A stretch of DNA of 64,000 bases from Polyangia bacterium (lineage in GTDB: Bacteria; Myxococcota_A; Polyangia; Polyangiales; JAUICN01), in assembly GCA_030427835.1 (NCBI GenBank), contig JAUICN010000013.1:16663-80662 (forward strand), given 5' to 3'. Below are positions 3,788 through 23,011 of this stretch, in pieces. The first letter of the stretch is position 1, and each line of letters begins with the position of its first letter. The translations under genes and the position numbers were made by a program. Below the pieces are notes generated by a model, which saw only the letters and a program-made list of their open reading frames with translations, was not told the origin of the DNA and made no database searches.

Positions 3788-3803
3788 GGGCACGGAGGTT
3801 GCT
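3788..3803 (+). promoter_or_regulatory. sigma54-type promoter
   Basis: gGGCACG-GAGG-TTGCT. The -12 C is at 3802 and an in-frame GTG is at 3816. Confidence 0.6.
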
Positions 3804-3815
3804 ACCTGTTTGGGT

Positions 3816-5564
3816 GTGCTGTCCCTCCCCCAACCAAACAATGTACGCAAACGTGGTGGCATCTACTCCCCTGTGGGTCGGCTGTCCCTCGCCCTATCTG
3901 GAGCGTTGGCCCTTTCAGGCTGTTCTGGGTTTTCGGGTTTGATTTCGGATCCCGGCGGCAACACACCCAAGAAGAACGGCGGCAACACGATTGACCTGAC
4001 GGCCGGCGACCCAGGCCATGTGGGGCCGGCTCGCCTTACCCGGGATCAATACACCCGCACCATGCAGGATCTGTTTAGCTCGGAACAAACTCCTGGCGAT
4101 CTACTTCCCACCGATGGCCTTGGTAGCAATGGCTTTCCGAATCAGGCGGAAAGCCTGACCCTGTCGGATGCCCATGTGCAGGGCATGCTGACCGGTGCCG
4201 AGAACCTGGTGGGTGAGGCCTTTTCACGGGGCCCTGTCACCGACGGGAGCTGGGGCGCGGTGCTTCCCTGCGATTGGAGGGAGATGTCCGACGAGGGCAA
4301 GAAGCAATGCGCCTACGAAACCCTGGAGGGATTTGCGTTTCGAGCGTGGCGGCGACCCCTTTCTGACCAGGAAAAATCTGAGATCCGAGGTTATTATGAT
4401 CAAGAGGCCGGCAACGAGACCTGGGAGGAATCCATCACCCGCGGGTTGATGGGCATTCTGCTTTCGCCGCAGTTCATCTACCACGTCAACGGCACCCAAG
4501 GGGACGGCGAGAAGAGGGAACTGGACCCCTACTCCCTGGCCTCACGATTGTCCTACACCGTGTGGGGCACCATGCCCGACGAGCTTCTTTTCGATTCGGC
4601 CAAGAGTGGAGACTTGATCAAGGAGGAGGAACTACTCCGTCAGGTGGACCGCATGCTGGATGACCCACGGGCGACGGAAGCACTGGTGGATTCGTTTTTC
4701 ATGAATTGGCTTCGTCTTGGACCTGCCGCGAACAATCAGTTTGGGGGCGATCACGGTGCCCGGCTTACGGGTGAATTGCGTGCCGCGATCCTTGCAGAGT
4801 TGAACCGGTTTGCGGAGGAGATTCTATTTGGTGACTACCCCATCACGGAACTGTTGTTGCACCCCACCCTGTACGTGAACGACACGTTGGCCGCCCACTA
4901 CGGCATGGCCGCTCCAGGATCGGCCACAGAGCTGGTTGCGGTGGACGCCTCGCTCGCCCAGGGCGGGCGCCAGGGGATTTTCGGGTTGGCAGGGTTCTAC
5001 ATGGCGATTTCAAACTCCCTAAAGACGGGAGCCACCCATCGTGGCCTGGTGGTTTTGGAAGTTCTTTTGGACCGGGCCCCGCCTCCGCCGCCCGCAGATG
5101 TGTTGGCCATGTTTCCCGACGTCACGGGCGACCTTGCTCCCCGTGAGTTCATGGCAATCCATAGGGCAGACCCCGCTTGCGCGGCCTGCCACAACCTCAT
5201 GGACCCTGTGGGTTTTGGTCTGGAAACCTACGACCCTATCGGCACCTATGTGTCGGAGTACGCGGAGTTCAACAATCAACCAAGGCCCACCGATGGCGTG
5301 TATGATGGACAATCCTTTGATTCGGTGGCGGAGTTGAGTGAGATCATCGCAGCCTCAGACGACTACCCCCGGGCGATGATGAAACACCTCATGGGCTATT
5401 TTGCAGGTCGAAAAATAACAGGCAGCGACGACAGCACCGTGGAAATAGCGATTCAGGACATGCGAGAAAACGGAAACACATTTCGGGATGCCATTCGCGC
5501 GGTGGTCAAGAGCGTGGTGTTTCGTGGGCAGGAAGTTCAAGAAGGAGGCGGAACATGCCAGTAG
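3816..5564 (+). CDS. DUF1587/1595/1592/1588/1585 multi-domain lipoprotein with CxxCH heme motif
   Basis: RLTRDQY, AFRAWRRPL, ILLSPQFIY..LASRLSY..W.TMPD, HRGL..L..LL, HR.DPACAACH..MDP.GFGLE.YD.IG. Lipobox LALSGC. Start revised from 3603 to GTG 3816 (TTG 3810 is an alternative). Confidence 0.85.
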   Translation: MLSLPQPNNVRKRGGIYSPVGRLSLALSGALALSGCSGFSGLISDPGGNTPKKNGGNTIDLTAGDPGHVGPARLTRDQYTRTMQDLFSSEQTPGDLLPTDGLGSNGFPNQAESLTLSDAHVQGMLTGAENLVGEAFSRGPVTDGSWGAVLPCDWREMSDEGKKQCAYETLEGFAFRAWRRPLSDQEKSEIRGYYDQEAGNETWEESITRGLMGILLSPQFIYHVNGTQGDGEKRELDPYSLASRLSYTVWGTMPDELLFDSAKSGDLIKEEELLRQVDRMLDDPRATEALVDSFFMNWLRLGPAANNQFGGDHGARLTGELRAAILAELNRFAEEILFGDYPITELLLHPTLYVNDTLAAHYGMAAPGSATELVAVDASLAQGGRQGIFGLAGFYMAISNSLKTGATHRGLVVLEVLLDRAPPPPPADVLAMFPDVTGDLAPREFMAIHRADPACAACHNLMDPVGFGLETYDPIGTYVSEYAEFNNQPRPTDGVYDGQSFDSVAELSEIIAASDDYPRAMMKHLMGYFAGRKITGSDDSTVEIAIQDMRENGNTFRDAIRAVVKSVVFRGQEVQEGGGTCQ

Positions 5565-7099
5565 GCAAGTGGACGAAGGAACGTCAACAGGCTCTTCTAC
5601 AATCAGAGATCGACGCCGCAAAACGCAGGGAACTCACCCGACGGAAGTTTCTCCAGCGCGCAGCAGCGGGTATCGCGGTGCCCACGTTGGTTTCCCTTCT
5701 TCCACGGACACTTCGGGCAGCCCCCCAACCCGGAGGCGGCACGGGCAGCATACCCAAGTCCAAGTATTTTGTGTTTTGCAATCTCCCCAACGGCATCCCC
5801 GTACATCACCCGGCCCACCAATCGGGGCCCAGTGAAGCCATGATTCCTGGGAGCCAAGGGGTTATCCAATCGCCCACCACGGTGCTTTCACCACTGCTCG
5901 ATGCGAGTACGCCGTTTACGTTGGTATCCAACCTGTATTGGAAATCTGGATGTAAAGCGCCCCTTGGGGACTACTACATGGGCCCCACCGGAAACGGCAC
6001 AGACGGCGACCACGGGCACCCTGGGGGAACGACTGCGTTTACGGGAGCCTCCCACCACCGGGGTTCCACGTACTACGGCAACCACAATGGCGCGACGATC
6101 GACCACATCATCGGCGAACACATTGCCAACCAACGCCCCTATGGACAAAAGGGTGTGCACATGCGCTTTCACAGCGGGCAGTACTCGAAGATGACCTACG
6201 CTACCCTTTCCTACCGCGGTGTGAAACAGCCCAATGTCCACCAGCACATTCCCTCTCAACTTCTATCCAACCTTTGTGTGACCAACCCCGTGGAGAACTC
6301 CGTGCCGCAAGAAGGGTCCAACGGAAACGCCAGACATCGGAGTATTTTGGACTTTGCCAGGGAGCGATTGGACAAGATGGCCTGCGAGGCCAGCGCCGAG
6401 GACCGGGCGACTCTGGACCAGTTCACCACTTCGGTGCGTGAGGTGGAAATGCGTATTCAAGATCTACCTCCGACGGCCAGCTGTGCAGGCCCCGGTACCG
6501 TGAACACAAATGTTCGGAGCGATTCGGAGGGCAAGTACCAAGATCTTTTGACGGCATTCTATCAGTTGGTTCCATTGACGCTTCAAACGGGCTCCGCACC
6601 GGTGGCCACTGTGATGTTGGACAACATTGCCAGCAATCAAACCTACGGCTACATCGGTGCATCGAACTTGCACCACGATGACAGCCACTACGGCACAGGA
6701 AATCACGACGCGACCAAGTTCAATCGGTACGCCAAAATTGTACAGCACCACGTGCGCAAGTTTGGGGAAATGGTCGAATCCCTGAAAGGCTACACCGACG
6801 TGGATGGCCAATCCGTGTACGACGGCACCACGGCGGTGTTCACCTCCAACATGGGGTCCGGCTCCTACCACGAGCAGCGGGACATGGCGGCCATCATCGC
6901 GGGGGGCGGCGGAGGCTACTGGCTGCACAACACCAACAACCAACCCATGCACGTGGCCCATCGCCCGGGCACCAGCGGCGGCCACCTAGGGGATTTCCTC
7001 TCCACCCTCGCCCGCGCCCACGGCCATCAGCAACTCGTAGGCCACAGCGACTGGGTCGACGGCATCATCCCCGAAATCACCTACACTGCCAACACCTAG
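5555..7099 (+). CDS. DUF1552 family protein with Tat-type signal
   Basis: RRKFLQRAAAG twin-Arg motif, SILD..RE....L....D...LDQF..SVRE.E.RI core, SNMGSGSYH. Overlaps the upstream DUF1592 gene, the usual partner arrangement. Confidence 0.85.
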   Translation: MPVGKWTKERQQALLQSEIDAAKRRELTRRKFLQRAAAGIAVPTLVSLLPRTLRAAPQPGGGTGSIPKSKYFVFCNLPNGIPVHHPAHQSGPSEAMIPGSQGVIQSPTTVLSPLLDASTPFTLVSNLYWKSGCKAPLGDYYMGPTGNGTDGDHGHPGGTTAFTGASHHRGSTYYGNHNGATIDHIIGEHIANQRPYGQKGVHMRFHSGQYSKMTYATLSYRGVKQPNVHQHIPSQLLSNLCVTNPVENSVPQEGSNGNARHRSILDFARERLDKMACEASAEDRATLDQFTTSVREVEMRIQDLPPTASCAGPGTVNTNVRSDSEGKYQDLLTAFYQLVPLTLQTGSAPVATVMLDNIASNQTYGYIGASNLHHDDSHYGTGNHDATKFNRYAKIVQHHVRKFGEMVESLKGYTDVDGQSVYDGTTAVFTSNMGSGSYHEQRDMAAIIAGGGGGYWLHNTNNQPMHVAHRPGTSGGHLGDFLSTLARAHGHQQLVGHSDWVDGIIPEITYTANT

Positions 7100-7219
7100 G
7101 CCAGTTCCATCCCTCAGTCACAACACCAGTTCGCTAGAAGCCGTGATCAAACGGCGAAAAAACGACCCAGGTTGAAAAAGTACGCAACTGAGTGGCGTGT
7201 CTGACCGATAAGGGAGCAC

Positions 7220-8098
7220 ATGACGATGCCCCGCCAGGTCCTGCAAGGGACCACCTACATGATAAGCCGCCGGTGCGTTGAACAACGGTTCTACTTGCAA
7301 CCCAGTGCCTGGCTCAATGCCGTTATCCTATTTCTCCTCGCCGTACTGGCTGAAATGTTTGGGATGGAAGTCCACGGTTTTACCTTCATGAGCAACCACT
7401 ATCACCTCATGATGACCGACCCCCACGGGAAAATCCCCCAGTTCATGGCACGATTCAACCGCCACTTGGCCCTCGCCGTGAAGTTCTACCACCGCATCGG
7501 AGGATGCATATTCGACCCCTGCGTCTCCTACCACGCCATGCCCCTGCTCACCCCAGAGGCGGTCCTCGACAAGCTCAGCTACATGACCCTGAACCCTGTC
7601 TCCGCTGGCCTTGTCCCCAAACCGGAGCAGTGGGAGGGCCTGAATACCTCCCCCGAACAACTCGGAACAGTTCTCCTGGAAGGGCTAAAGGTCCCTTCCT
7701 TTTTCAAACGCGTTTCCTGGGTGATTCCCAAACGATTCGTACTCACCATGCCCCCAGCCCTACGGGACCAGGACCGGGACACTGTCGTAATCACTTTGCA
7801 ACGTCTCAATGAAGACCGGCGTCGCAAGGTACGGGGCCCCTTTCGCGGGATGCAACAGGTGCACAATATCCCTGTCACCTTCCAACCAGAAACCCAGGCC
7901 CCAAACAAACCCCAGCGCATCCCCACACATTCGGCAAAAAGCACAGCCGTCTATCGCCAAGCACGTGCTTCCCTACGTGCGTTTCGCAACGCTTACCGCA
8001 ATGCCTTGCGCCATTTTCGAAACGGTCACTTCAACACACCCTTTCCTGAGGGTACCTGGTGGATGATTCACTACGGCGGCGCTTCCCTCGCTACATAG
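7220..8098 (+). CDS. REP-associated tyrosine transposase-like HUH (Y1) endonuclease, copy 1
   Basis: TYMISRRC, F.FMSNHYHL (HUH), YMTLNPV.AGLV (catalytic Tyr), C-terminal FPEGTW. SD AGGGAG upstream. Confidence 0.85.
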   Translation: MTMPRQVLQGTTYMISRRCVEQRFYLQPSAWLNAVILFLLAVLAEMFGMEVHGFTFMSNHYHLMMTDPHGKIPQFMARFNRHLALAVKFYHRIGGCIFDPCVSYHAMPLLTPEAVLDKLSYMTLNPVSAGLVPKPEQWEGLNTSPEQLGTVLLEGLKVPSFFKRVSWVIPKRFVLTMPPALRDQDRDTVVITLQRLNEDRRRKVRGPFRGMQQVHNIPVTFQPETQAPNKPQRIPTHSAKSTAVYRQARASLRAFRNAYRNALRHFRNGHFNTPFPEGTWWMIHYGGASLAT

Positions 8099-8286
8099 AG
8101 CACCCCTACACCTTGCAAGTTCCCACGGAAGCCTCTTCCCACCGCATCCGTGCGTCCACGGGCAGACACTTTTGAAAATCCTCTCCGCAGACTCACTTCC
8201 ACGGAGGCAAAACGGCAGCAATGTGCGTAACCAGAAGCTGTTCCGGTCACAAAGAGGTTGGTGCACAGGCAGCCTCGTGCCCCCAA

Positions 8287-8316
8287 TCACCCGAGTTACC
8301 CAATCAACCTGGGTGA
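8287..8316. repeat. REP-like inverted doublet (ACCCAGGTT family)
   Basis: TCACCCGAGTT-ACCCAATC-AACCTGGGTGA forms an 11-bp stem with one G-T pair and one mismatch. Confidence 0.5.
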
Positions 8317-8429
8317 GTTTGTAACAAGCGACTCGCCGGTTAGGTTTTCAATGCACAATTGGCAACGGGCCAACTCCTGGTGGAGATGACCCGCTGGGTA
8401 GGAGGATTGCCCTCCCCGGTTACCCCAGA

Positions 8430-10415
8430 CTAGTTGGCCAGGGCGGCGTCAATGGCGGCTTTGAATGCCGGGAAGGGTTGCGCCCCCTGCAGCAGTTTGC
8501 CGTTGATGAAGAAGCTGGGTGTACCGATCTGGGCACCGGCCTTGGTGACCGCCTGCTTGTCCTGATTGATGCGTGCAGCGTGGCGGTGGCTATCCAGGGC
8601 AGACTTGAACTGGGCCATGTTGATGCCTCCCACTTCCTGGGCGTACTGCTCCAGGTTGGCCCGGGAAAGGGCACGTTGGTTGGCGAACAGTTTGTCATGG
8701 TAGGCCCAGAACTTCTCATCCCCACCCTGGCGATGAACCTCCATGGAGGCCTCATGAGCAAGCTGCGCGTTTTGGTGGAACGGCAATGGGAAGTGGCGCC
8801 AAACGATGCGCACCTTGCCTGCGTACTCCTGCTTGATCTGCTGAATAGTGGGGTTCACCCGACCGCAGAATGGGCATTCAAAGTCGCTGAACTCCTGAAT
8901 CACAACCTTTGCATTCTTTGGACCGTAGGAGGGTGAGTCGTCGGTGACGGCAATGTTGTAGATCTTGTTGGGGTCCGGGCGGGCGGGCGCCTCGGCGTTG
9001 CCGCCGCCAATGGTCTGGGGCGAGGTGGCGCCATTTTTGATGCTTTCCTCATAGACCTTGGATCGGGGAGTGCCGGCTGCCACAAGCTTGTGTGCCTTTG
9101 CCAACTCCTCGTCGATGACCTTCTTGAAAGCCTCGAAGGGCTGGGCGCCCCGCAGGTTGCGACCGTTGATGAAGAAACTTGGTGTCCCGCGAGCGCCAAG
9201 CTGGGCCGCAAGCTTTTGATCCTTCTCGATGGCCGCCTGGTGCTCGTTATTGTCGATGGCGGACTTCAACTGGGCCACGTTCAGGCCAAGCTCCTGACCG
9301 TATTTCTCCAGGTCGGCACGGCTGAGGGCGGTTCGGTTGTCGAATAGCTTGTCGTGCATGGCCCAGAACTTGTCATTTCCGCCCTGGTCAAAGGCTTCCA
9401 TGGCGGTCTGATGAGCGGGGCCCGCGTTCTTGTGGAATGGCAGCGGGTTGTTGAACCACACGAATCGAACGTCGTTGCCGTATTGCTCCTTGATTTGCTT
9501 CATGGTGGGTTGCACGCGGGAGCAGAAGGGGCATTCGAAGTCGCTCACCTCAACAATGGTGACAAGCGCATCAGCTGGACCCTTGGAAGGATTGCCGTCC
9601 ACAGGAACCTTGTACACCGCGTTGGGGTCAGGCTGGGCACGGGCCTGTTGTGGTTGTTGGGGCTTGGGATCTTCGGCCTTCTCCTTGGCGTTCTTCATGA
9701 AGGCGGCGTAGAGCTGTTGGCGCTTCACACCCTTTTTGAGCAGGCCTTCCGCTGCGGCGATTTCCTCGTCGATGACTTCCTTGAACTTCTCAAAGGGCTG
9801 GGCACCGGCAAGTTTACGGCCGTTGATGAAAAACCCGGGGGTTCCGCGGGCGCCAATCTTGGAGGCAATCTGCAGGTCGGCTTGAATCACACCCATGTGA
9901 GCGTTGGAATCAAGAGCCTTCTTAAACGCTCCCATGTCAAGAGCGAGTGCCTTGGCGTGCTTCTCAAGGGTTTCACGCCCAAGGGATTTTTGGTCGCCGA
10001 AGAGTTTGTCGTGCATGGCCCAGAACTTCTTGCTGCCACCCTGCTTGAAGGCCTCGATGGAGGCCTGGTGTGCCAGGGGTGCGTCCTTATGGAAAGGAAG
10101 GGGACTGTGGCGCCAGAGAATGCGTACCTTGCCATCGTATTCCTTGAGAATGCGGGCCATGGTCGGGTTCACGCGGCTGCAGAATGGGCATTGGAAGTCA
10201 CTGAACTCCACGATGGTGACCAGCGCATCCTTCACGCCCTTCATGGGCTGGTCATCCGATACGGGAACCTTGAGGCGCTCCACGTTGTCGTCGACACCCA
10301 CGGTGACGGCTTCCTCGGCGACATCGTTGCCGGATTTTCCACCCGTGAGGTGGCCTATTAACAGGCCTCCCACAAACGCGACCAAAATCGATGCAATGGC
10401 TGAACCCTTATTCAT
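8430..10415 (-). CDS. Membrane-anchored protein with three tandem DsbA-family thioredoxin domains
   Basis: Three copies of [FV]SDF[QE]CPFC...GTP.FFING. N-terminal hydrophobic anchor. SD AAGGAG upstream. Confidence 0.9.
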   Translation of the reverse strand: MNKGSAIASILVAFVGGLLIGHLTGGKSGNDVAEEAVTVGVDDNVERLKVPVSDDQPMKGVKDALVTIVEFSDFQCPFCSRVNPTMARILKEYDGKVRILWRHSPLPFHKDAPLAHQASIEAFKQGGSKKFWAMHDKLFGDQKSLGRETLEKHAKALALDMGAFKKALDSNAHMGVIQADLQIASKIGARGTPGFFINGRKLAGAQPFEKFKEVIDEEIAAAEGLLKKGVKRQQLYAAFMKNAKEKAEDPKPQQPQQARAQPDPNAVYKVPVDGNPSKGPADALVTIVEVSDFECPFCSRVQPTMKQIKEQYGNDVRFVWFNNPLPFHKNAGPAHQTAMEAFDQGGNDKFWAMHDKLFDNRTALSRADLEKYGQELGLNVAQLKSAIDNNEHQAAIEKDQKLAAQLGARGTPSFFINGRNLRGAQPFEAFKKVIDEELAKAHKLVAAGTPRSKVYEESIKNGATSPQTIGGGNAEAPARPDPNKIYNIAVTDDSPSYGPKNAKVVIQEFSDFECPFCGRVNPTIQQIKQEYAGKVRIVWRHFPLPFHQNAQLAHEASMEVHRQGGDEKFWAYHDKLFANQRALSRANLEQYAQEVGGINMAQFKSALDSHRHAARINQDKQAVTKAGAQIGTPSFFINGKLLQGAQPFPAFKAAIDAALAN

Positions 10416-10600
10416 GACTCTCTACCTCTCCTTACACATGGAACCCGGATGGGCGTCCTAACTTCACGTGGCCAATGTTTGAATAACGATTTGGCACACG
10501 ATTGGGCACAATTGGGGCCCGTGAGTTGCGTACAAACCACGGTCGCTGCAAAAGGTCAACTGCCGAGCAGGATCGGGGGCGATCGGGGGCACCACGGAAC

Positions 10601-11233
10601 ATGAAGCGCGAACACCTGGAACAGCTGATCTATTCCCTGAAAACGCCCCTTAGGGCAGAGATTCCCCAGGTGGTGAAGGCCCAATTGGCGGATTTTGCGA
10701 AACTTGTGGCCCAGTGGAACCGGCGCATGAACCTGACCGCGGCCAAAGATAGCCAGGATCTGTGCGAGGTGCTTTTTGCGGATGCCCTGGTTTTGGCAGG
10801 CGTGGTGAGTGACTCGGCCCGGGTGGTGGACGTGGGCTCAGGGGCGGGAGCACCGGGAATTCCGCTGTTTTTGTTGCGGCAGGATCTCGAGGGGCTACTG
10901 GTAGAACCTCTTCACAAGCGATGCACGTTCCTGAGGTTCTGCCTGGCCGAGCTGGGGCTTCTGGATCGAGTGAGCGTGGCCCAGCAGTCCATCCCCACCG
11001 ACGGCCCTCCCCCGCCCCAGCACCCGGTGCCCCAGTTCAAGCCCACCGTAGCCATGTCCCGAGCCACCTTCGCCCCAGCCGACTGGCTACCCCTCGGGCA
11101 AGGCCTCCTGCCCACCGGCGCCCCCGTGGTGGTGCTAGCCAGCCAACCCCTGCAAGCCCCATCCAGCCCTAACCAAGTAATCGAATACACCTGGCCCCTG
11201 TCTGGACGACAACGTTGGTTGGGGGTTTGGTAG
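10601..11233 (+). CDS. rsmG: 16S rRNA m7G527 methyltransferase
   Basis: WNRRMNLTA, VVDVGSGAGAPGIPL, LVEP..KR..FL, SRAT. Confidence 0.85.
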   Translation: MKREHLEQLIYSLKTPLRAEIPQVVKAQLADFAKLVAQWNRRMNLTAAKDSQDLCEVLFADALVLAGVVSDSARVVDVGSGAGAPGIPLFLLRQDLEGLLVEPLHKRCTFLRFCLAELGLLDRVSVAQQSIPTDGPPPPQHPVPQFKPTVAMSRATFAPADWLPLGQGLLPTGAPVVVLASQPLQAPSSPNQVIEYTWPLSGRQRWLGVW

Positions 11234-11254
11234 GCTATTAACCCTGGAACGTTG

Positions 11255-11887
11255 CTAGTTGCGATCGGGGAGGATGCGGATGCGGCGGTTGTTGCCTTCG
11301 CCTTCGGAGCGGGTGGAGACGCCTTCGAACTCGGCAAGGAAGTTGTGGACCACGCGGCGGTCCCTGGGGGTCATGGGCTGTAAAGAGACGACCTTGCCCT
11401 GATCGATGGCCCGTTCGGCCTGACGCTCGGCAAGGGTGCAGAGGCCCTCGTCGTGGCGTTCGCGGTAGTCGCCGGAATCGATCAGGATGTGCCTGCGGCC
11501 CCGGTGGGAGCGGTTGATGTGCTTGTTTACCAGAAACTGTAGGGCGTCCAGGGTTTGGCCCTTGCGGCCGATGGCGCGACCGGAGTCAGGGCCGGAGATG
11601 TCCAACACCACTTCTTCGTCGTCGGTACGAATGGCGACGTCGGTGTCCAGGTCCATGTGGGCGAGAATGCCGTCCAGGAACTCCAGTGCTTCCTCGGCCT
11701 TGCCGTCACCGGGGTGCCCCTTGGAGGCCTCGTCGTCCCGGCTGTCGGAACGGCGGCTGGCATTGCGACGGCTGTCACTGCGACCACTGCCACTACGGCT
11801 GCTGGCATTGGGTTTGTCGTTGGTGGGGGCGTCGCCATCCACAAAGAGGGCGCCATCCATGAGGGGCTTGTCGTTATTGTCGGCCAC
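11255..11887 (-). CDS. jag: Jag/KhpB RNA-binding protein (KH + R3H)
   Basis: IGRKGQTLDALQFL, PMTPRDRRVVH, SEGEG..R. Located after yidC. Confidence 0.9.
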   Translation of the reverse strand: MADNNDKPLMDGALFVDGDAPTNDKPNASSRSGSGRSDSRRNASRRSDSRDDEASKGHPGDGKAEEALEFLDGILAHMDLDTDVAIRTDDEEVVLDISGPDSGRAIGRKGQTLDALQFLVNKHINRSHRGRRHILIDSGDYRERHDEGLCTLAERQAERAIDQGKVVSLQPMTPRDRRVVHNFLAEFEGVSTRSEGEGNNRRIRILPDRN

Positions 11888-14747: not shown

Positions 14748-14823
14748 GGCGATCTCCACAGCCGGCGATAAAGGGGGCCGGCGACAAAAAGGTCGCTAAA
14801 GGGAGCACGGCCGGGGGGGGCTG

Positions 14824-15540
14824 TCAAGCAACGGAGGATCCGTCGGTGGGGGCGAGCATGCCCTGTTCCCGAAAGCTGAAGTGTTGGTGATGACCCAGGA
14901 TGATGTGGTCCACCAGGGGAATGCCCAGGATATCGCCCGCGTGGGCCAGGCGATGGGTGAGCTCCAGGTCCGACGGGCTGGGGGTGCAGTTGCCCGAGGG
15001 GTGGTTGTGTACGACCACGGCAAATACGGCCCCCTGGTGGAGCAGGGGGCGAAATACGTCGGCGGGGGTGACCCAGGCAGAGTTGGCGCTGCCCTGGGCC
15101 ACGCGGGTGTTGCCGCAGAGGCGGCTGCGGGAATCCAGGCCAAAGGCGAGCACGTGTTCCTGGGGTGGATTTCCGATGCGGTGGCGGGCCAGCTGGGCGA
15201 TTTCTTCGCTCTTGGTAATGGACTGGCGCTCCGGTGCGGGCTGGCTGTGGCTACGCCGGCCCAGTTCCAGGGCGCTCAATATCCGGGCGGCCTTGGCGGG
15301 CCCCACCCCGGGAAGGCCTGAGATTTCTGCTGGGGTGGCCTGGGAGAGTTCACGCAGGCTTACAAACCGGTGCAGTAGGCGGCTGGCGAGCACCTTTACG
15401 GGTTCCCCTGGCGTGCCGGTACCCAGAACGATGGCGAGCAGTTCTTCTTCGGTGAGGCGTTGGGCGCCCTGTTGGAGGAGCTTTTCCCTGGGAGGCAACA
15501 TGGTGGGAGCCAATGCACGTGCCGTACCGGTTGGGTTCAT
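14824..15540 (-). CDS. radC: RadC family protein (HhH + JAB)
   Basis: PREKLL..GA..L..EELLAI.L.TG, G.GPAKA, HNHPSG..PS..D...T..L..AG..LGI.L.DH.I. Confidence 0.92.
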   Translation of the reverse strand: MNPTGTARALAPTMLPPREKLLQQGAQRLTEEELLAIVLGTGTPGEPVKVLASRLLHRFVSLRELSQATPAEISGLPGVGPAKAARILSALELGRRSHSQPAPERQSITKSEEIAQLARHRIGNPPQEHVLAFGLDSRSRLCGNTRVAQGSANSAWVTPADVFRPLLHQGAVFAVVVHNHPSGNCTPSPSDLELTHRLAHAGDILGIPLVDHIILGHHQHFSFREQGMLAPTDGSSVA

Positions 15541-15560
15541 TAAGGGTTACGGTGTGTTAC

Positions 15561-16376
15561 GTGGATGAAGCCAAGCCCACCGCCACCCACCGCCGGCGGC
15601 CGCCAGTGAGCCCCGTGGTTTTTGGGGGAGCGACGGCCGTTCTCGCGCTGGCGTCCGCTGGGGTGCTGTGGAGTACACGGGTGCCACCGGAGCAACGTCG
15701 TGCCCACCAACCTGGGATCACTCTCATTGTAACGTCGGGGAAAGTGTTGGAGCCCAGGTTGGACATTGCGATTCAACCTCAGCCCTCCAGCTGCACGCCG
15801 CCGGCAACCAAAACACCAGGGCACGCGAACCCATTACCCACAAACGTGGGAGAGAACGCCGCGAGCCCCGTAACCCGTTGGGAAACCACGAACCAAAGCC
15901 CTGGGGGGTTTGCGTGGGGCGGTACGGACGACCGACTGCACGTGCACGGGTTGGACGGGGCGGAGCTGTGGACGTTCGAGGATACCCAGGACGTGACGGC
16001 GCAACCGCTGGTCGTCGGCAACCGGATTTACGCCGCGGGAGAGTCCGGGGTGGTGCGCGCGTTTGAGTTGAACGGGGACATGCTTTGGGAAACGGATGTG
16101 ACTGGCCCGGTGCGGGCGCCCCTGGTTCAAGCCGGTGAAGATATGATTTGGGTGCTGACCAGCGGGCTCACGCCCCAACTGATTCGCCTAGGGTTCAATG
16201 GCACCCTCCACGCCGTGCACCACCTGCCCCGATCCGACGACCCCGCCACCACCTACCCCCATGCACCCGTGGTGACCGACAACAATTGGACGTGGCTCAC
16301 CGACCACCTGTGTAGACTGCTCGCACTAGACACCCAAGGCCGCCTGCGTGTTCAAAGGGTGTTGTCGCAACCTTGA
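15561..16376 (+). CDS. PQQ-binding-like beta-propeller protein with N-terminal TM segment
   Basis: Repeats G.D..LH....DG.ELWTF and .VRAF..NG..LW. Confidence 0.7.
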   Translation: MDEAKPTATHRRRPPVSPVVFGGATAVLALASAGVLWSTRVPPEQRRAHQPGITLIVTSGKVLEPRLDIAIQPQPSSCTPPATKTPGHANPLPTNVGENAASPVTRWETTNQSPGGFAWGGTDDRLHVHGLDGAELWTFEDTQDVTAQPLVVGNRIYAAGESGVVRAFELNGDMLWETDVTGPVRAPLVQAGEDMIWVLTSGLTPQLIRLGFNGTLHAVHHLPRSDDPATTYPHAPVVTDNNWTWLTDHLCRLLALDTQGRLRVQRVLSQP

Positions 16377-16386
16377 GAATCCACAT

Positions 16387-17685
16387 TTAGTTCACTAGGT
16401 TGACGTTGTAGACGACCTTGAGTGCTGCGAGGGTGGCGGCGTCTGCTTGGGAGGCGCTGAGGGTGAGGAGGAGTCCACGGCCGTTTTGCTTTACAGTCGC
16501 CACGACGTTGTCATTGAGAAGCAATTTTAGGCCGGCAGACGTTACCTCAGGATTGTCGTTCACCGACAGGGACTGAAGGTGTGTGGGCCAGTGGTCTACC
16601 AGATTTGCTAGCCCGGGATCGGAGAAACCACCACCGAACTTGAAGGTGCCGATGAAGCTCAGGTCGAGCGACTCCAGTTTGGGAAATACTTGCGCGATGG
16701 ATGCTAACTCTTCGTTGACTTTTCTGCCCGAGCAAAGCGACATATTTAGTGACTCTAGGCTTTCCATGGTGAAGTTACGGGCGGCGGCCTTGGTTAGGTC
16801 AAACTGGTCTGTTTCGTTGAGCCTCAGTGCCCGAACGCGATCGAGATCAAAGAGCGCTTTCAGCTCCCTATTTCTGGTGGGAAGGTCATAGGGACCTGCG
16901 GTTACGCTTTGCCAAAAGGTGATGCCCACTAGTTGTGGAAGCGTACCAATCGCTGTGAGCCCTTCGGCGCTCGTTTCGATAAGGTCCCCAAAGGTGACAA
17001 CATTTAGGTGGGGAAGCGATGCCAATGCATCAATGCTTCCGCCAATCCAGGCGCGAGCCATGGTTGCGGAAAGCAAGATTGAAATGTCGTCCGGCTTGCC
17101 ACTTTTTTTTTGTCCGATGTTGGCGCGCCCCCCTGCGTACTGGTCTGTGCAGCCCAGGAAAAACGTTGTCGACTCTAGTTTACTATCAAGCCAGCGCACG
17201 ATGGCCCAGTGGACAATCGTGGCAGTCCCTGTGCTGCTGTCGACCACGTGGTCCGACACACGAAGGGCCATGGACCAGGTGTCGCCGATGAAGGTGATGT
17301 CGAGGATGGCTTTGTCACCGACCGGGGCCCACTGGGCTTGCAGTTCGTATTCACCGGTGTACCCGAATGATGCAAGGGCCGCTTTCACGATGTCTCTGTG
17401 AACAGGGGGAGCGGCGTTGGGAAACGCAACATCTGCTTCAGGCAACTCAGTGCTGTTCAGCCATTGCACCAACGTGTCCAGTTCTTCTGGCTTTTCGCGG
17501 TCGGGGAACTTGGCTTCGATGAATGGGATTAGGGCTGCCGCAAAGGCGTTGCACTGGGGATCTGTGGCGGTGACGCCCTCAGTGGACTTGCCAGAGGGCG
17601 CGGCGGGCTTTGGTGCGCCGAAGGCGCAGGCGTGGAGCAGCAGCGTGAGGGTGGCCAGTACAACGGATGAGTGCGCGGAGTTCAT
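16387..17685 (-). CDS. Lipoprotein with C-terminal leucine-rich repeats (paralog 1)
   Basis: Lipobox LLLHAC; LRR-like units LESLNMS, FPKLESLDLS, HLQSLSVNDNPEVT..GL. Start revised to ATG 17685. Confidence 0.7.
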   Translation of the reverse strand: MNSAHSSVVLATLTLLLHACAFGAPKPAAPSGKSTEGVTATDPQCNAFAAALIPFIEAKFPDREKPEELDTLVQWLNSTELPEADVAFPNAAPPVHRDIVKAALASFGYTGEYELQAQWAPVGDKAILDITFIGDTWSMALRVSDHVVDSSTGTATIVHWAIVRWLDSKLESTTFFLGCTDQYAGGRANIGQKKSGKPDDISILLSATMARAWIGGSIDALASLPHLNVVTFGDLIETSAEGLTAIGTLPQLVGITFWQSVTAGPYDLPTRNRELKALFDLDRVRALRLNETDQFDLTKAAARNFTMESLESLNMSLCSGRKVNEELASIAQVFPKLESLDLSFIGTFKFGGGFSDPGLANLVDHWPTHLQSLSVNDNPEVTSAGLKLLLNDNVVATVKQNGRGLLLTLSASQADAATLAALKVVYNVNLVN

Positions 17686-17697
17686 GCCGGACTGAAA

Positions 17698-17713
17698 AGC
17701 AATCCCTGTGCCA
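17698..17713 (-). promoter_or_regulatory. sigma54-type promoter
   Basis: TGGCACA-GGGA-TTGCT. The -12 C is at 17699 and the ATG at 17685. Confidence 0.7.
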
Positions 17714-17915
17714 TTTGTGCTTCTTGCGAAAACTGGAGGACATTCCGTCACCCCGGCGCGACATATTCACCGGCCGAACGACCGGAGAAGCCATCCGCCC
17801 CTGTAGACATGAACACAAAAACACGCCTGCCCGTACACGCGGTGTTGTGGCACCCCATCACGCAGTTGCGCGAGTATGGTGACCGCCGGGTGGACGTGAC
17901 TCTTGAAGCGCGAAA

Positions 17916-19214
17916 TTATCTCCAGTGTACCTTGTAGGTGCCTTCGAGCTGGCCTGTGATTTGTTTGTTGGCCTGGCTCGATGAAAGCACGAGCCCGAAG
18001 GTTGAAGCCCCCGTGGCGAGGGTGCTTTTGATGAACTCGGGCCCAAGAAGAAAGCGCAACCCGTCGGAGTCAATGCCTGAGTTGTCGTCGAGGGAAAGAA
18101 ATCGCACGTTCCGGGGCCACTGGTCTGTCAGGGTCCGAATACCGTCGTTGGAAACCCCTGAGCTGTGCAAATAGAGCGCAGTGATGTCCGGGAATATGCT
18201 GGCGATGTGGGGCATGGTTCCATTTGCCATCTTTTCGCCCATTTGAGACAGGAAAAGCCCCTGCAAGCCCTCCATGACATGCCCCTCTGCGGCCGCACGC
18301 CGCAGGTCAAACTGGTTGCCGCGCAGGTGAAGCTTCGTCAGCCCTCGAATGGAAAAAAGTGCGGCCAACTCCTTTTCTTGGTCTTCGGTTTTGCCGGAAG
18401 TTGGGCTTGTGGTCTCGTACAGCCGCAGGGTGCCCAGGTGAGGGATGCTTCCAATGATTTCCAATTCGTTGACCCCCACTTCCACTGCGTCGAGTTCAAG
18501 GACTTCCAGCGTGAAGAGTGCCGCCGTCGCGGTGATGCTGTGTGGTGCCTGCACTTCTGCACGGGTTGCTACCAACAGGGATTGAATATCACTGGGTTGG
18601 CCGTATTCCTTTTTGACGTACGCGAGGGACGGCCCACCGGCCTGGTCTTCCGTGCAACCGTGGAACGCGACACGCTGATCGACCACACTTGGTTGCCACT
18701 GAACTACAGACCACCGGCCAAATGCAGTGTGATCCGCAAGGTCACCCGCAGCGTCTGGAACTGAGGTGTTCAACCCACGAAGAGCCACCGACCAGGTTTC
18801 GCCAATGAACAGGATGTCCAACACCGAAAGGTTTCCGGCGGGGGTCCACCGTGCCTGTACGGTGAAGTCTCCGGAATAGCCCAAACCTGCGAGTGCCTTT
18901 TGCACTCTCCTGTGGTTGCTGGAGGGCGCTGCCAAGGGAAGCTCCCGGGCAGCCTCAGGTCGCTCTGTGCGGGTGAGCCACTCCTCAAGGGTTTTCAGAT
19001 CCTCCTGCCCTTCGTGCTTGGGTAGCTTGGCTTCCACCAAGGGGATCAGCCCCCTGGCGAAGCCATTGCAATGCGATTCACTTTCACCTACTTCTGTGTT
19101 TGCCTTTGTGGTGTGGATGGTCTCTACAGAACAAGCACAAAACGCAGATATCCCGGCGAGGAGAAGGGGTAGAGACAATGGCGACGAACGGTGACGGGGA
19201 GCTTCAATAGACAT
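17916..19214 (-). CDS. Lipoprotein with C-terminal leucine-rich repeats (paralog 2)
   Basis: Lipobox SAFCAC; colinear similarity to paralog 1 (CNGFARGLIPLVEAKLP vs CNAFAAALIPFIEAKFP); LRR units. Confidence 0.7.
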   Translation of the reverse strand: MSIEAPRHRSSPLSLPLLLAGISAFCACSVETIHTTKANTEVGESESHCNGFARGLIPLVEAKLPKHEGQEDLKTLEEWLTRTERPEAARELPLAAPSSNHRRVQKALAGLGYSGDFTVQARWTPAGNLSVLDILFIGETWSVALRGLNTSVPDAAGDLADHTAFGRWSVVQWQPSVVDQRVAFHGCTEDQAGGPSLAYVKKEYGQPSDIQSLLVATRAEVQAPHSITATAALFTLEVLELDAVEVGVNELEIIGSIPHLGTLRLYETTSPTSGKTEDQEKELAALFSIRGLTKLHLRGNQFDLRRAAAEGHVMEGLQGLFLSQMGEKMANGTMPHIASIFPDITALYLHSSGVSNDGIRTLTDQWPRNVRFLSLDDNSGIDSDGLRFLLGPEFIKSTLATGASTFGLVLSSSQANKQITGQLEGTYKVHWR

Positions 19215-19226
19215 GTGACAGCCCTA

Positions 19227-19242
19227 AGCAATCGCCGTGCCC
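19227..19242 (-). promoter_or_regulatory. sigma54-type promoter
   Basis: gGGCACG-GCGA-TTGCT. The -12 C is at 19228, the ATG at 19214, and no SD is present. Confidence 0.65.
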
Positions 19243-19286
19243 ATCACCAAGGACCCTGTGCGGCGATCGTTTTTGGACGTACGCGG

Positions 19287-20828
19287 TTAACCCTGGTGGA
19301 TTTTCCAGTCGGTGCCGGTGGGGCGGTCTAGGATTTCGATGTGTTTGGTTTGGAGTTCGTCGCGGACGGCGTCGGCGGTGGCGAAGTCCTTGTTGGCGCG
19401 TGCGGCGGCTCTTCGATCCAGTTGTTGTTGCACCCATTGCGGGTCGATGCCGAGTTGGGTGCATTTTCGGGTGCGCACCCCGGCGAGCACGTGTTCAGCC
19501 TGGCGTTCGGCAAGGCCTAGGGTTTGGCCAAGGTATTCGAAACCGGCTTTCATGGCATCCACCAGGTTGCCGGCGACCTTGCCCTTTTTACCCTTGGCTT
19601 GATCGAGGTGCTCGTTGGTGGCCTTGAGGAAGGCAGCAAGGTGGCTGAGCGCGACCGACGTGTTGAGGTCATCGTTGAGGGCATTGCGCAAGCGCTCCGG
19701 GAAGTGGAGCAATGTGGCGTTGGCGTGGCCTTCAGGATTGGCGGGGTTGGGGGAGATGCGCTTGGGGGGCAGGTTGTGGAGGCGTTGGCGCGTTTCGTAG
19801 AGGTACTCGATTCGCCCTTCAGCTTCGTCAAGCTGGGGAAAGGTCTGGGGGTGGGCGCCTTTTGCGTTGCCGGGGTCTTTTTCGTTGTGATCCTCGACCG
19901 CAAAGTGCAGCGGTGCGCGGTAGTGGGTGGTGAGCATGAAGTAGCGCAGGGCCTCCGGATCGTAGCGTTCGTACAGGGCACGCAGGGTGAAGAAGTTGCC
20001 CAGGCTCTTGGACATTTTCTCCTTGTCGATTTCCACAAACCCGTTGTGCATCCAATGGGTGGCGTAGGGCTTGGTGGTGGCGCATTCGCTTTGGGCGATT
20101 TCGTTTTCGTGGTGGGGGAACACCAGGTCGAGCCCGCCGCCGTGTAGGTCCATGGTTTCACCTAGATGTTCGATGGCCATGGCGGAGCACTCGATGTGCC
20201 AACCGGGGCGGCCGTGGCCCCAGGGGCTGGGCCAACCGGGCTCTTCGGGGGAGGCACACTTCCAAAGGGCGAAGTCTTCGGGGGATTGCTTTTGGGATTG
20301 TTCGCCGTCCGCAAGTCGGCCGCTGGCGCCCTGGACCATGTCTTCGAGCTTGCGGTGGGAGAGTTTCCCGTAGTTGGGAAAAGCGCGGACCTTGAACCAA
20401 ACGTTGCCCTCCACGGCGTAGGCAGCGCCCCGGTCGATGAGGGTTTGGATGAGGGCGTGAATGTGGGGAAGGTGGTCGCTCACCCGGGGTTCCACGTCGG
20501 GCGCCAGGTTGCGCAGACGGGCCATGTCCTCGGTGTAGGCGGCGGCGTATTGGTTGGCGACTTCCAGTGGGGTGCGGTTTTCCTCCACGGCCCGACGCAC
20601 GATTTTGTCGTCAATGTCGGTAATGTTGCGTACGTATTGGACCTTGTATCCCGTGGCGCGCAGGTGGCGGGTGAGCACATCAAACACCAAACACGAGCGC
20701 CCGTGACCCAGGTGAGCATGGTCGTACACCGTGGGCCCGCACACGTAGACCTTCGCCACCCCAGCCTCCTGGGTGGTAAACGTTTCTCGTTTGGAGCTCA
20801 GGGTGTTGTAGATCTCTAGGCCAGCCAT
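19287..20828 (-). CDS. cysS: Cysteine--tRNA ligase
   Basis: YVCGPTVYDHAHLGH, GRPGWHIECSAM, HGGG.DL.FPHHENE, KMSKSLGNF. Confidence 0.97.
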   Translation of the reverse strand: MAGLEIYNTLSSKRETFTTQEAGVAKVYVCGPTVYDHAHLGHGRSCLVFDVLTRHLRATGYKVQYVRNITDIDDKIVRRAVEENRTPLEVANQYAAAYTEDMARLRNLAPDVEPRVSDHLPHIHALIQTLIDRGAAYAVEGNVWFKVRAFPNYGKLSHRKLEDMVQGASGRLADGEQSQKQSPEDFALWKCASPEEPGWPSPWGHGRPGWHIECSAMAIEHLGETMDLHGGGLDLVFPHHENEIAQSECATTKPYATHWMHNGFVEIDKEKMSKSLGNFFTLRALYERYDPEALRYFMLTTHYRAPLHFAVEDHNEKDPGNAKGAHPQTFPQLDEAEGRIEYLYETRQRLHNLPPKRISPNPANPEGHANATLLHFPERLRNALNDDLNTSVALSHLAAFLKATNEHLDQAKGKKGKVAGNLVDAMKAGFEYLGQTLGLAERQAEHVLAGVRTRKCTQLGIDPQWVQQQLDRRAAARANKDFATADAVRDELQTKHIEILDRPTGTDWKIHQG

Positions 20829-20900
20829 GGTAGCCAGCCACCTACCGCGAAACTTAGGGGACGTGCAAGTTCACTTCTCTCGAAAACTCAGCGGTAGGGG

Positions 20901-20939
20901 CCCAATGGAAAGACCCGATGGGAAGACCCAATGGAAAGA
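20901..20939 (+). repeat. 13-bp tandem repeat x3
   Basis: CCCAATGGAAAGA / CCCGATGGGAAGA / CCCAATGGAAAGA, abutting the stop codon of 20940..21821. Confidence 0.85.
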
Positions 20940-21821
20940 CTAGTTCCGGTAGCTTGCTTGCAGTGGTGCTACGGATTTGAGGAAGGACTCGAGTAGGGAC
21001 TTTTCTTTTTCCAAGGCTTCCCCCGAAACCTGGGTGGGGAGCCAGTCCTGGGTGTAGGTGCGGTACAGGGAGAAGGAAGAATCTGCCCGGAGGATGGCGA
21101 CCCCAGCGCCGCCGGCTTTCTCTGCTGCGGCCGAAAACGCGGCGAACTGCCTTGTTTTTGCGTTTTTCCAACGGTCGAACATGTTGAAAGTGGTTTCGAG
21201 GGCCGAAAACGCCGTTGCCTCCGCCTCCGTCATGGTGCTCAAGGGTTTGGGCGGATTCAGGCGCCCCTCGGTAGAGTGCGTCTTCTTCCATTGGAGTACG
21301 GTGTGGGTGGCGTTGACCCAGGAAACGAACTCGTTCACGTCGCCGATGCTTTCAAGCGTGGCGTTCAGTAACCCGATTCCCGACTTTCGGAGGTCAGCCA
21401 CGGTGTCCGTTAGAATAGGAAAGAACCCGGCCGATTGCTCCGTGCTCAGGATCGAGGGGTCTGCCCAGAACGCGGTGGCGTAGTTAAAGATGTCTTCGAC
21501 GCGTAGGTGGCCCATGCCGTGGTAGCGGGAGAACCTAACGATGGCCGGATCCCACGCGAGTGGATGCCGAAGCACTGTGGGGTCCAGCTGCCGCATGGTC
21601 TCAAGAATGGCAGGGCGCTCCCATTCAAACGTACGGAGCCGGCTGCCTGTGGTTCCAATGGGTTCCAGGGGAAGTGCACTGCCGCCCTCGATGTTCCCCA
21701 CTGCCATTTGGAATGCCACCTTTGCACCCAGCTCGCGCACCGAACGAAATAGCTGGCTGGATTGGGGCGCACAGGGCTTAAGGGTGAGCTCATTGTTGAA
21801 CTGCATGTCGAGCTGGGCCAT
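20940..21821 (-). CDS. Hypothetical protein (no family recognised)
   Basis: 293-aa ORF fitting cleanly between cysS and the PP2C gene, with protein-like composition. Confidence 0.6.
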   Translation of the reverse strand: MAQLDMQFNNELTLKPCAPQSSQLFRSVRELGAKVAFQMAVGNIEGGSALPLEPIGTTGSRLRTFEWERPAILETMRQLDPTVLRHPLAWDPAIVRFSRYHGMGHLRVEDIFNYATAFWADPSILSTEQSAGFFPILTDTVADLRKSGIGLLNATLESIGDVNEFVSWVNATHTVLQWKKTHSTEGRLNPPKPLSTMTEAEATAFSALETTFNMFDRWKNAKTRQFAAFSAAAEKAGGAGVAILRADSSFSLYRTYTQDWLPTQVSGEALEKEKSLLESFLKSVAPLQASYRN

Positions 21822-21868
21822 TCGGGCAGGCCCCGTTTCCAGGAGTCGACCCTACTGAAACAACCCCG

Positions 21869-21906
21869 CTGAAACGACCCACGTTCGAAAATTAATCAAT
21901 GATTTC
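21869..21906. repeat. Dispersed ~39-bp intergenic repeat, copy A (inverted copy at 46761-46799)
   Basis: CTGAAA-CGACCCACGTTCGAAAATTAATCAATGATTTC vs CTGAAAACAACCCAGGTTCGAAATTAAATCAATGATTTC (reverse complement of 46761-46799). Confidence 0.75.
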
Positions 21907-22076
21907 AAAATCCCAAAATCACCCAGGTTGGAATGGTGGCAAGGGTGTTTTGTGTCGAAAAGTGGTTTTCAGCATGTGTCTTATTTTGCTCCAGTGGAAC
22001 TGACCCTTAAAATCATTTGGGAAAATTGGAAAATTCGACCGCTGGATTGGAGGCTTGGGTGGCCTGGGTTGTTCGA

Positions 22077-22108
22077 CTGGGAGATTGAGCGGCTGGGAGA
22101 TTGAGCGG
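22077..22108 (+). repeat. 16-bp perfect direct tandem repeat x2
   Basis: CTGGGAGATTGAGCGG twice, about 105-135 bp upstream of the sigma54-like promoter at 22213. Confidence 0.85.
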
Positions 22109-22212
22109 CTAGTGTGTTGAGCAGCTGGGAGTGCGACGTGTTTGGTCCAGCTGGCTGGGGCCTTGGGTGCTCCGTGGCACGGATTGGCTCCCGTTTTCCC
22201 TGGGAATTCCGC

Positions 22213-22228
22213 TGGCACGGGGTTCGCA
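22213..22228 (+). promoter_or_regulatory. sigma54-type promoter
   Basis: TGGCACG-GGGT-TCGCA (GG-N10-GC, one mismatch in the -12 box). The -12 C is at 22227 and the ATG at 22241. Confidence 0.5.
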
Positions 22229-22240
22229 TTGTCTGGGGGT

Positions 22241-23011
22241 ATGTCTACGACGACAGATCAAGCAGTACTTACCAGCCAGGGCCTTGGGGCCACCCACGTG
22301 GGGCGGCGCTCCAACAACGAGGACGCCTTTGTGACCGACCCTATTCTGGGGTTTTACGCCGTGGCAGACGGCATGGGCGGCCACGAGGGTGGAGAGGTGG
22401 CGAGCTGGCTTGCCATTGAATCCCTCCACGGGTTTTGCATGCGTGCGGGAGCGCGATCCGCGAGCGAAGTGAGCCAGGTGACCTCACCGGGAAGTACGGT
22501 TGGGCAGGATATGATGGCCCTTGCCTTTCGCCAGGCCCACCGTTCCATTCAACGTCAACGTACTGGCCGATTGTCCCACATGGGTTCCACCGCGGCCCTG
22601 GTTTGGGTACACGGAAGCCGCGCCACCATCGCCCACATCGGCGACAGCCGGGTCTACATGAGCCGTGGCGGCGTGTTGCAACAAATGACGCGGGACCACT
22701 CCCTGGACGCGGAACTGCAGGAAGCCGGCATGGTGGCCAAGGGAATCACGGTGGTGCCCGGCCTGATTACCCGGGCCCTGGGGATCGAGGGGGACGGCGC
22801 CGCCGAGGTCACTGAAGTGGAACTCCAGGCAGGAGACCGATTTGTGATTTGTAGCGATGGCCTCACGGATGTGGTGGACGACAACATGATTCAGCAGATT
22901 CTTGATCATTCCCCCTTTGGCATCCGTGCCGACGCCCTAGTCAACGAGGCGTACCGCGCGGGTAGCCGGGACAACATCACGGTTGTGAGCATTGAAATCA
23001 AGGGTTCTTAG
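22241..23011 (+). CDS. PP2C-family Ser/Thr protein phosphatase
   Basis: THVGRR.NNEDAF, VADGMGGH.GGEVAS, HIGDSRVY, TRDHS, ITRALG, CSDGL, GSRDNIT. Confidence 0.93.
   Translation: MSTTTDQAVLTSQGLGATHVGRRSNNEDAFVTDPILGFYAVADGMGGHEGGEVASWLAIESLHGFCMRAGARSASEVSQVTSPGSTVGQDMMALAFRQAHRSIQRQRTGRLSHMGSTAALVWVHGSRATIAHIGDSRVYMSRGGVLQQMTRDHSLDAELQEAGMVAKGITVVPGLITRALGIEGDGAAEVTEVELQAGDRFVICSDGLTDVVDDNMIQQILDHSPFGIRADALVNEAYRAGSRDNITVVSIEIKGS

Follow-up and report, generated by a model that had tools for sequence, protein, structure and literature searches.

In the window studied here, a stretch of 64,000 nucleotides (nt) from contig JAUICN010000013.1 of a Polyangia bacterium, four genes begin immediately downstream of a sigma-54-type promoter motif, the −24/−12 element, with the C of the −12 element lying exactly 14 nt ahead of the first base of the start codon. 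This abutting layout, its distribution in the genome and beyond, and what it may mean for the transcription and translation of the genes concerned are the subject of this report.

Four genes that abut a sigma-54-type motif

The sites, their genes, and a fifth sigma-54 promoter that serves as a leadered comparison case are as follows (TSS, transcription start site; aa, amino acids).

3788-3802, plus strand: site 1, sigma-54 −24/−12 motif GGGCACGGAGGTTGC, one mismatch to TGGCAC-N5-TTGC; −12 C at 3802, predicted TSS at 3814-3816, GTG at 3816
3816..5564, plus strand: gene 1, encoding a 582-aa lipoprotein (counted from the GTG at 3816) that belongs to the DUF1592/1588/1595/1585/1587 (PSD/PSCyt) family
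17713-17699, minus strand: site 2, perfect sigma-54 consensus TGGCACAGGGATTGC; −12 C at 17699, predicted TSS at 17687-17685
16387..17685, minus strand: gene 2, encoding an orphan lipoprotein of 432 aa that starts at the ATG at 17685 and has its lipobox Cys as residue 20
19242-19228, minus strand: site 3, sigma-54 motif GGGCACGGCGATTGC; −12 C at 19228, predicted TSS at 19216-19214
17916..19214, minus strand: gene 3, encoding an orphan lipoprotein of 432 aa that starts at the ATG at 19214
22213-22227, plus strand: site 4, sigma-54 motif TGGCACGGGGTTCGC; −12 C at 22227, −12 element TCGC, predicted TSS at 22239-22241
22241..23011, plus strand: gene 4, encoding a cytoplasmic Ser/Thr phosphatase of the PP2C type with 256 aa
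2511-2497, minus strand: fifth sigma-54 promoter, perfect consensus TGGCACAGTAGTTGC, leadered comparison case

At all four sites the spacing of the GG and GC dinucleotides is exactly 10 nt, and each site has 0 to 1 mismatches. When we re-checked the coordinates reported in a first-pass annotation of this DNA, they proved exact: the distance from the −12 C to the start codon is 14 nt in every case and, as that annotation had also claimed, none of the four 13-nt spacers contains a Shine-Dalgarno (SD) sequence. Its description of the four contexts as unrelated was too broad, since genes 2 and 3 are tandem paralogues (36% identity), the upstream regions of which are alike only in the promoter core.

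The start of gene 3 is tightly constrained. Its spacer, TTAGGGCTGTCAC, contains an in-frame TAG (and also a TCAC, the A of which lies 12 nt past the −12 C), and because this in-frame stop lies 9 nt upstream, the ATG at 19214 is the earliest possible start of the gene. The earlier statement that no other methionine codon precedes the lipobox is correct for ATG, but an in-frame TTG is present at codon 13. For gene 4, a start at 22241 is consistent with a Pfam match from residue 16 onward and with homology to orthologues that sets in at residues 2-18; the TCGC of its −12 element is also that of Escherichia coli glnAp2. A second sigma-54-like box, TGGCACGGATTGGCT, lies at 22175-22189 on the plus strand, 38 nt upstream of site 4, and is probably nonfunctional because its GG-to-GC spacing is off by one.

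Gene 1 is overlapped on its downstream side by a DUF1552 gene (5555-7099), and the two probably form an operon because of this overlap. Its GTG is the least certain of the four starts, because the N5 spacer of site 1 holds a GGAGG (3795-3799) 10 nt ahead of an in-frame TTG at 3810 and a further in-frame start candidate, GTG, follows at 3873. On a read-through transcript this GGAGG could be used as an SD sequence, which gives an alternative reading of the site; an SD-linked excess of TTG starts is not seen in this genome. Comparison with orthologues is of no help for the GTG, as homology begins only at residue 25-34, and the family is highly paralogous (≤27 copies per genome), with paralogues elsewhere mostly SD led.

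The fifth promoter has a TCAC with its A at offset 12 (position 2485), followed by a 15-nt leader with a GGAGAG SD sequence and the ATG of a lipoprotein gene at 2470; it is the leadered form of the promoter class to which the four sites belong.

Genome-wide distribution of motif-to-start distances

The genome of the window (G000) comprises 3.32 Mb in 30 contigs, with 59% G+C and an estimated completeness of 98%, and our home-made calls based on open reading frames (ORFs) yielded 2503 genes. Throughout, the motif is TGGCAC-N5-TTGC, and the offset is the number of nt from the −12 C to the first base of the start codon. Within the window, motif matches with at most one mismatch number 12 against 8 expected, a count that is not significant by itself. 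The genome as a whole has 369 matches, 45 of them perfect and 324 with one mismatch, and the distances from motif to start codon, which the first-pass annotation had proposed to examine at this scale, are not flat, with a spike at 14-15 nt. Without gene calling, ATG follows GGCAC-N5-TTGC (n = 116) 9, 7, and 8 times at offsets 14, 15, and 16, compared to a background of ~2 per offset. Among the 369 matches, in-frame gene-start ATGs at offsets 13 to 18 number 5, 19, 14, 9, 10, and 5, where the background is 1.2 per offset (62 observed versus 7.1 expected; Poisson p = 2.5e-36). With up to two mismatches, ATG occurs 31 times at offset 14 and 31 times at offset 15 (versus ~3), and GTG occurs 16 times at offset 14 (versus ~4.5), GTG still being a minority among the near sites. 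Such "near" motifs account for 78/369 matches, compared to 3/247 in a reversed-motif control (odds ratio, 22; p = 1e-15).

The 45 perfect motifs divide into 16 near motifs, 13 located 16-307 nt upstream of a gene, 5 just inside a longest ORF, and 11 elsewhere. For the analyses of start codons and context we collected 114 near sites, most of them at offsets 14 (37 sites) and 15 (31 sites), with smaller numbers at 16 (12), 17 (14), 18 (8), 13 (7), and 12 (3). The ~114 genes with the abutting layout correspond to about half of the recognizable sigma-54 promoters of this genome. The observation is thus real and far beyond chance.

Support for the promoter-adjacent start codons

The starts of the near sites are independently supported by stops in the spacer, by the lack of earlier starts, and by the placement of lipoboxes. 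An in-frame stop lies within the spacer at 26/114 near sites, and at 37/114 no in-frame codon further upstream could serve as a start. Of the 114 products, 72 (63%) have a lipobox spaced from the Met as in a signal peptide, compared to 408/2389 of the other genes (17%, by a liberal count), which amounts to an odds ratio of 8.3 (p = 3e-26); if a hydrophobic N terminus is also accepted, 94/114 products qualify. These features indicate that the promoter-adjacent codon is the true initiation codon, with site 1 uncertain. The layout serves mainly genes for lipoproteins and secreted proteins, and it does so not exclusively, the cytoplasmic PP2C phosphatase having it as well.

The motif as a probable promoter

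The genome has the machinery expected for sigma-54 promoters. A complete RpoN is encoded by an ORF of 536 aa (PF04552 match, E = 1.5e-65) that has ARRTVAKYR as RpoN box and, at the N terminus, a region I rich in Gln and Leu, and there are 15 full-length PF00158 enhancer-binding proteins with GAFTGA loops visible in their sequences. Judged by eye and without a Pfam scan, these proteins have apparent REC-, FHA-, GAF-, or kinase-type input regions and mostly an HTH-like (helix-turn-helix) C-terminal stretch.

The strongest evidence that the motif may be read as a promoter comes from orthologues of the PP2C gene, 35-51% identical, in other families of the order. At least 10 of these families keep (T/C)GGCA(C/T)-N5-T(T/C)CGC, with the unusual −12 element also seen at site 4, directly upstream of the gene. 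The ATG lies at offset 14-15 in G174, G183, and G181 as it does in this genome, while G004, G012, G179, G173, G014, G182, and G020 have a leader of 25-45 nt with a GGAGG SD sequence and a GTG start. Because the motif is kept in noncoding DNA regardless of its distance from the start codon, it behaves like a promoter and not like a translation signal; the varying distance rules out a signal for translation acting in the RNA. The same comparison shows that leadered and near-leaderless forms of the promoter interconvert.

In the regions upstream of the 114 near sites (−220 to −16), TGGAACA/ATGTTCC occurs in 12-17 cases, versus 3-5 expected, and may be the binding site of one activator. A perfect near-type promoter also follows, within ~0.7 kb, each of two enhancer-binding-protein genes of this genome (C8:88083-89310 and C15:338184-339320), and these loci could be activator-target pairs. 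The N terminus of the C8 target, MSGIFAGIQPLTRALDYHSERHNVL, may resemble that of a flagellar rod protein.

Phylogenetic distribution

On the basis of RpoN and CysRS, the genome belongs to an uncultured Polyangiales/Sandaracinaceae-like lineage of the Myxococcota. In a survey of 151 genomes of the phylum, we compared the share of perfect motifs with an ATG at offsets 13-17 to that at control offsets 33-37.

This genome: 15/45 (33%) at offsets 13-17; control, 6.7%
Other Polyangiales: 64/286 (22%) at offsets 13-17; control, 8.7%
Other orders of the class Polyangia: 15/68 (22%) at offsets 13-17; control, 2.9%
Rest of the phylum Myxococcota: 180/2399 (7.5%, about chance) at offsets 13-17; control, 9.7%

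The difference between Polyangia and the rest of the phylum is pronounced (odds ratio, 3.8; p = 5e-19), and in the latter the matches at the control offsets are typically accompanied by GGAGG. In 13 other families of the Polyangiales, the first ATG after a perfect motif falls at offsets 13-18 in 65/137 cases, with 21 each at offsets 14 and 15. In the genome G019, 15 of 20 ATGs of this kind begin ORFs that reach 140 aa or more and mostly encode signal peptides, and for 7 a stop precedes the ATG by 3-9 nt. A Nannocystis genome, also from the class Polyangia, has 3/7 at offsets 14-16, and five gammaproteobacterial genomes showed no spike. The abutting layout is thus a trait of the class Polyangia.

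Several individual cases deserve mention. Two loci of G019, L174 and L180, carry paralogous 35-aa ORFs, M..DGIEYRLFIELIFLVALLGYFVV and M..DGHEWRLFVELVILTALLGYLAPML, located 14-15 nt past a perfect sigma-54 motif, which may encode small membrane proteins under sigma-54 control. In Marinobacter (G168), three near-identical copies of TGGCACCCGCCTTGC(T/A)CCGC(A/G)CCATCCATG occur, and this repeated element carries the sigma-54 consensus with an ATG at offset 13. A conserved combination of motif and ATG in Myxococcaceae-like genomes, TGGCACGTCCTTTGC...ATG, was rejected as not a clean example, as it is located within the 3′-terminal part of the ORF ahead of it, 3 nt past the stop of that ORF.

Transcription start and leader length

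A TCA trinucleotide whose A falls on offset 12 is present at 17/114 near sites (15%), compared to ~2 at other offsets, whatever the offset of the ATG, and it is seen in leadered promoters too; we regard it as a hint of an initiator. Immediately ahead of the start codon, 79% of the near sites have a pyrimidine (background, 55%), and within the offset-14 class C directly precedes the ATG in 28 of 37 cases. A pyrimidine-purine step is the preferred context of a start site and, given this C, would fall on the A of the ATG. In Leptospira, differential RNA sequencing placed the TSSs of three sigma-54 promoters exactly 12 nt past the −12 C, and the leaders of the same three promoters are 16-27 nt long and contain an SD sequence (PMC5243855 supplement).

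For the near sites, we predict a leader of 0-3 nt in the modal class and of up to 6 nt in the tail. The first-pass annotation had proposed leaders of 1-3 nt and a coupling of sigma-54 to leaderless translation. The idea of coupling finds support here, and the leader figure, which follows from assuming the canonical spacing of 12 nt seen in Leptospira, widens to a possible 0-6 nt, the TSS itself being read from sequence.

Among sequencing runs, two metagenomic DNA data sets and no RNA run were found to contain the window. Three sequencing runs labelled METATRANSCRIPTOMIC (X11, X12, and X14) cover the locus L185 of G159, an abundant wastewater member of the Polyangia. Their coverage is flat and even over 3 kb, their contigs of up to 5 kb span intergenic DNA at this locus, and no 5′ ends were seen there; these runs look like DNA libraries in their behavior.

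Leaderless signatures elsewhere in the genome

Sigma-70-type promoters of the same genome bear a comparable signature. TANNNT with its last T 7 nt before a start codon occurs 177 times, versus ~65 expected, and for TGNTANNNT, an extended −10 element, an end 7 nt ahead of ATG or GTG is seen 42 times, versus ~5 expected; for both elements, a 7-nt spacing is the geometry of a 0-nt leader. SD enrichment is modest, with GGAGG at 5-9 nt accounting for only ~100-300 genes. The excess of starts is distributed over ATG and GTG as 39:5 in the sigma-54 class, 96:40 in SD-led genes, and 35:18 in the sigma-70 leaderless class. Leaderless initiation thus looks to be in use elsewhere in this genome, in a lineage that would be rich in leaderless mRNAs, and its ribosomes evidently handle such mRNAs, given the sigma-70-type leaderless signature.

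Discussion

The abutting of sigma-54-type motifs and start codons is well supported in silico, by sequence statistics and by comparison among genomes. We consider it likely that these motifs are functional sigma-54 promoters, placed so that transcription would begin either directly on the start codon or 1-6 nt ahead of it. RNA polymerase with sigma-54 would occupy the −24/−12 element as a closed complex, which would be remodelled by one of the 15 AAA+ enhancer-binding proteins. Transcription would then start ~12-15 nt past the −12 C, that is, at the A of the ATG or 2-3 nt ahead of it, and the resulting SD-less mRNA would follow the leaderless route, in which the ribosome recognizes the 5′-proximal AUG. 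This route would already be in wide use in the genome for mRNAs from sigma-70-type promoters.

Several points weigh against this explanation. We infer from sequence that the genes depend on sigma-54, where exactly their transcription starts, and that their mRNAs are translated by the leaderless route, and the word "leaderless" in particular depends on promoter geometry. If the canonical TSS at offset 12 applied, the modal leader would be 2-3 nt and not 0. Start codons are scarce at offsets 12 and 13 (3 and 7/114), whereas in the sigma-70 class the peak is at a leader of exactly 0 nt; because of this scarcity, either the sigma-54 TSS would lie at 14-15 in these bacteria or short leaders would be tolerated. 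An additional upstream promoter that gives a longer transcript is possible at any single site, and some intergenic regions are short, such as the 72 nt between cysS and gene 3. An enrichment analysis of 7-mers upstream of the 114 near sites yielded no dominant shared activator site, although with 15 different activators no single shared site is expected. Finally, site 1 is open to alternative readings, sites 2 and 3 are paralogous and hence not independent, and the gene calls do not come from a standard gene caller.

The alternative that survives best keeps a fixed TSS at offset 12, which would give leaders of 2-6 nt, and invokes another form of SD-independent initiation, for example by 30S subunits on an unstructured 5′ end or dependent on S1. 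The canonical start 12 nt past the −12 C in Leptospira (PMC5243855) speaks for it, as do the enrichment of TCA at offset 12 regardless of the ATG offset and the distribution of starts, which are rare at 12-13, peak at 14-15, and tail to 18. On the other hand, the putative initiator is confined to 15% of the sites, the C before the ATG in the offset-14 class puts the pyrimidine-purine step on the A of the ATG, and the 0-nt peak of the sigma-70 class argues for selection on a 5′-terminal start codon. We therefore rate this alternative as rather unlikely, noting that it departs from the explanation preferred here by only a few nucleotides.

It is considerably less probable still that the genes are transcribed mainly from promoters further upstream, with the motif inside a longer 5′ untranslated region or operon transcript, where it would serve as an auxiliary promoter, secondary or conditional, or bind sigma-54 so as to block or tune read-through, and with translation relying on unrecognized signals. 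Site 3, with no terminator in the short gap to cysS, would allow for this, as would motifs at the end of the upstream gene (for example, the Myxococcaceae-like L182, where the motif lies inside the preceding ORF) and the failure to detect a shared upstream activator site. Yet such promoters would leave unexplained both the 14-15-nt spacing in ~100 genes and across a whole class and the absence of SD sequences at short spacing as opposed to their presence at long spacing; scans for sigma-70 promoters and terminators around the four sites gave no promoter-like match, although these scans are uninformative.

An artefact, in the form of chance matches, a mobile repeat that carries both motif and ATG, or miscalled starts, has hardly any probability left and is largely refuted: it could appeal to the unremarkable number of motifs in the window, to the paralogy of sites 2 and 3, and to the home-made gene calls, but the spike appears without gene calls and stands 9-fold over the background and 20-fold over the reversed-motif control, spacer stops and lipoboxes after the Met fix the starts, the pattern recurs in other families, and an origin from a repeat or mobile element is ruled out by flanks and spacers that differ among the sites.

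Returning to functional sigma-54 promoters that abut the start codon, one may tentatively go a step further and suppose that the Polyangia have recruited sigma-54 as a dedicated factor for much of their lipoproteome, with promoters fused to the start codon, enhancer-gated transcription into SD-free mRNAs that begin at most 3 nt from the AUG, and a start-site register perhaps shifted to 14-15 nt past the −12 C, which would yield exact 5′-AUG ends. We regard this broader proposal as possible but not as the probable state of affairs; if true, it would be the first systematic link of the activator-dependent sigma-54 class to leaderless translation. Should the abutting promoters themselves be confirmed, leaderless expression would not be bound to the sigma-70 −10 element and would instead be a property of the ribosomes of a lineage, open to any promoter class. 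An all-or-none, signal-gated sigma-54 switch could then govern ~100 genes for surface proteins, in a regulon in which no 5′ untranslated region remains for posttranscriptional control, and orthologous promoters that switch between SD-leadered and leaderless forms would offer a natural series for studying how modes of initiation evolve. In practical terms, gene callers that expect an SD sequence will misplace these starts in metagenome-assembled genomes of Polyangia, and in such genomes a −24/−12 motif 14-15 nt upstream is a usable predictor of the start codon.

The first-pass annotation had not known the coupling of sigma-54 to leaderless mRNAs as a described feature, and a full-text literature search that combined "leaderless" with sigma-54, RpoN, Myxococcus, or Deltaproteobacteria agrees, as no description of a sigma-54-driven leaderless transcript was found. 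Papers on Leptospira, Sinorhizobium meliloti, PexR, and Deinococcus-Thermus touch both topics and never such a transcript; one Myxococcus xanthus paper mentions a possible sigma-A leaderless pexR beside a sigma-54 ahpC promoter. To our knowledge, sigma-54 promoters and leaderless mRNAs, each well known, have been studied in different organisms and not linked.

Canonical −24/−12 promoters of the sigma-54 class include E. coli glnAp2 and Klebsiella pneumoniae nifH. The promoters described here share with them the TGGCAC-N5-TTGC consensus, the invariant GG and GC 10 nt apart, and a genome that encodes the RpoN box and AAA+ activators. In the Leptospira EbpA regulon, too, sigma-54 drives putative lipoprotein genes (PMC5243855), and the genes predicted here to depend on sigma-54 are mostly for lipoproteins or secreted proteins. 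In contrast to described sigma-54 promoters, which are known with SD leaders, of 16-27 nt in Leptospira (PMC5243855), and to the leadered PP2C orthologues, with leaders of 25-45 nt, about half of those found here have the start codon at offsets 13-18 and no SD sequence. With leaderless systems of the sigma-70 type, the predicted organization has in common the lack of a 5′ untranslated region and SD sequence, a fixed short distance between promoter and start codon, and the character of a genome-wide, lineage-specific habit. Leaderless mRNAs of the sigma-70 type are known in Mycobacterium and Caulobacter. In Deinococcus-Thermus, they are made from −10 elements that abut the ORF (PMC12340547). 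The difference lies in the promoter, which here is of the sigma-54 class. Promoters of this class are activator and ATP dependent and show no basal open-complex formation. Unlike the sigma-70 leaderless class of the same genome, the sigma-54 class also has a stronger preference for ATG (39:5 compared to 35:18 for ATG:GTG) and a leader that is perhaps 2-3 nt and not 0.

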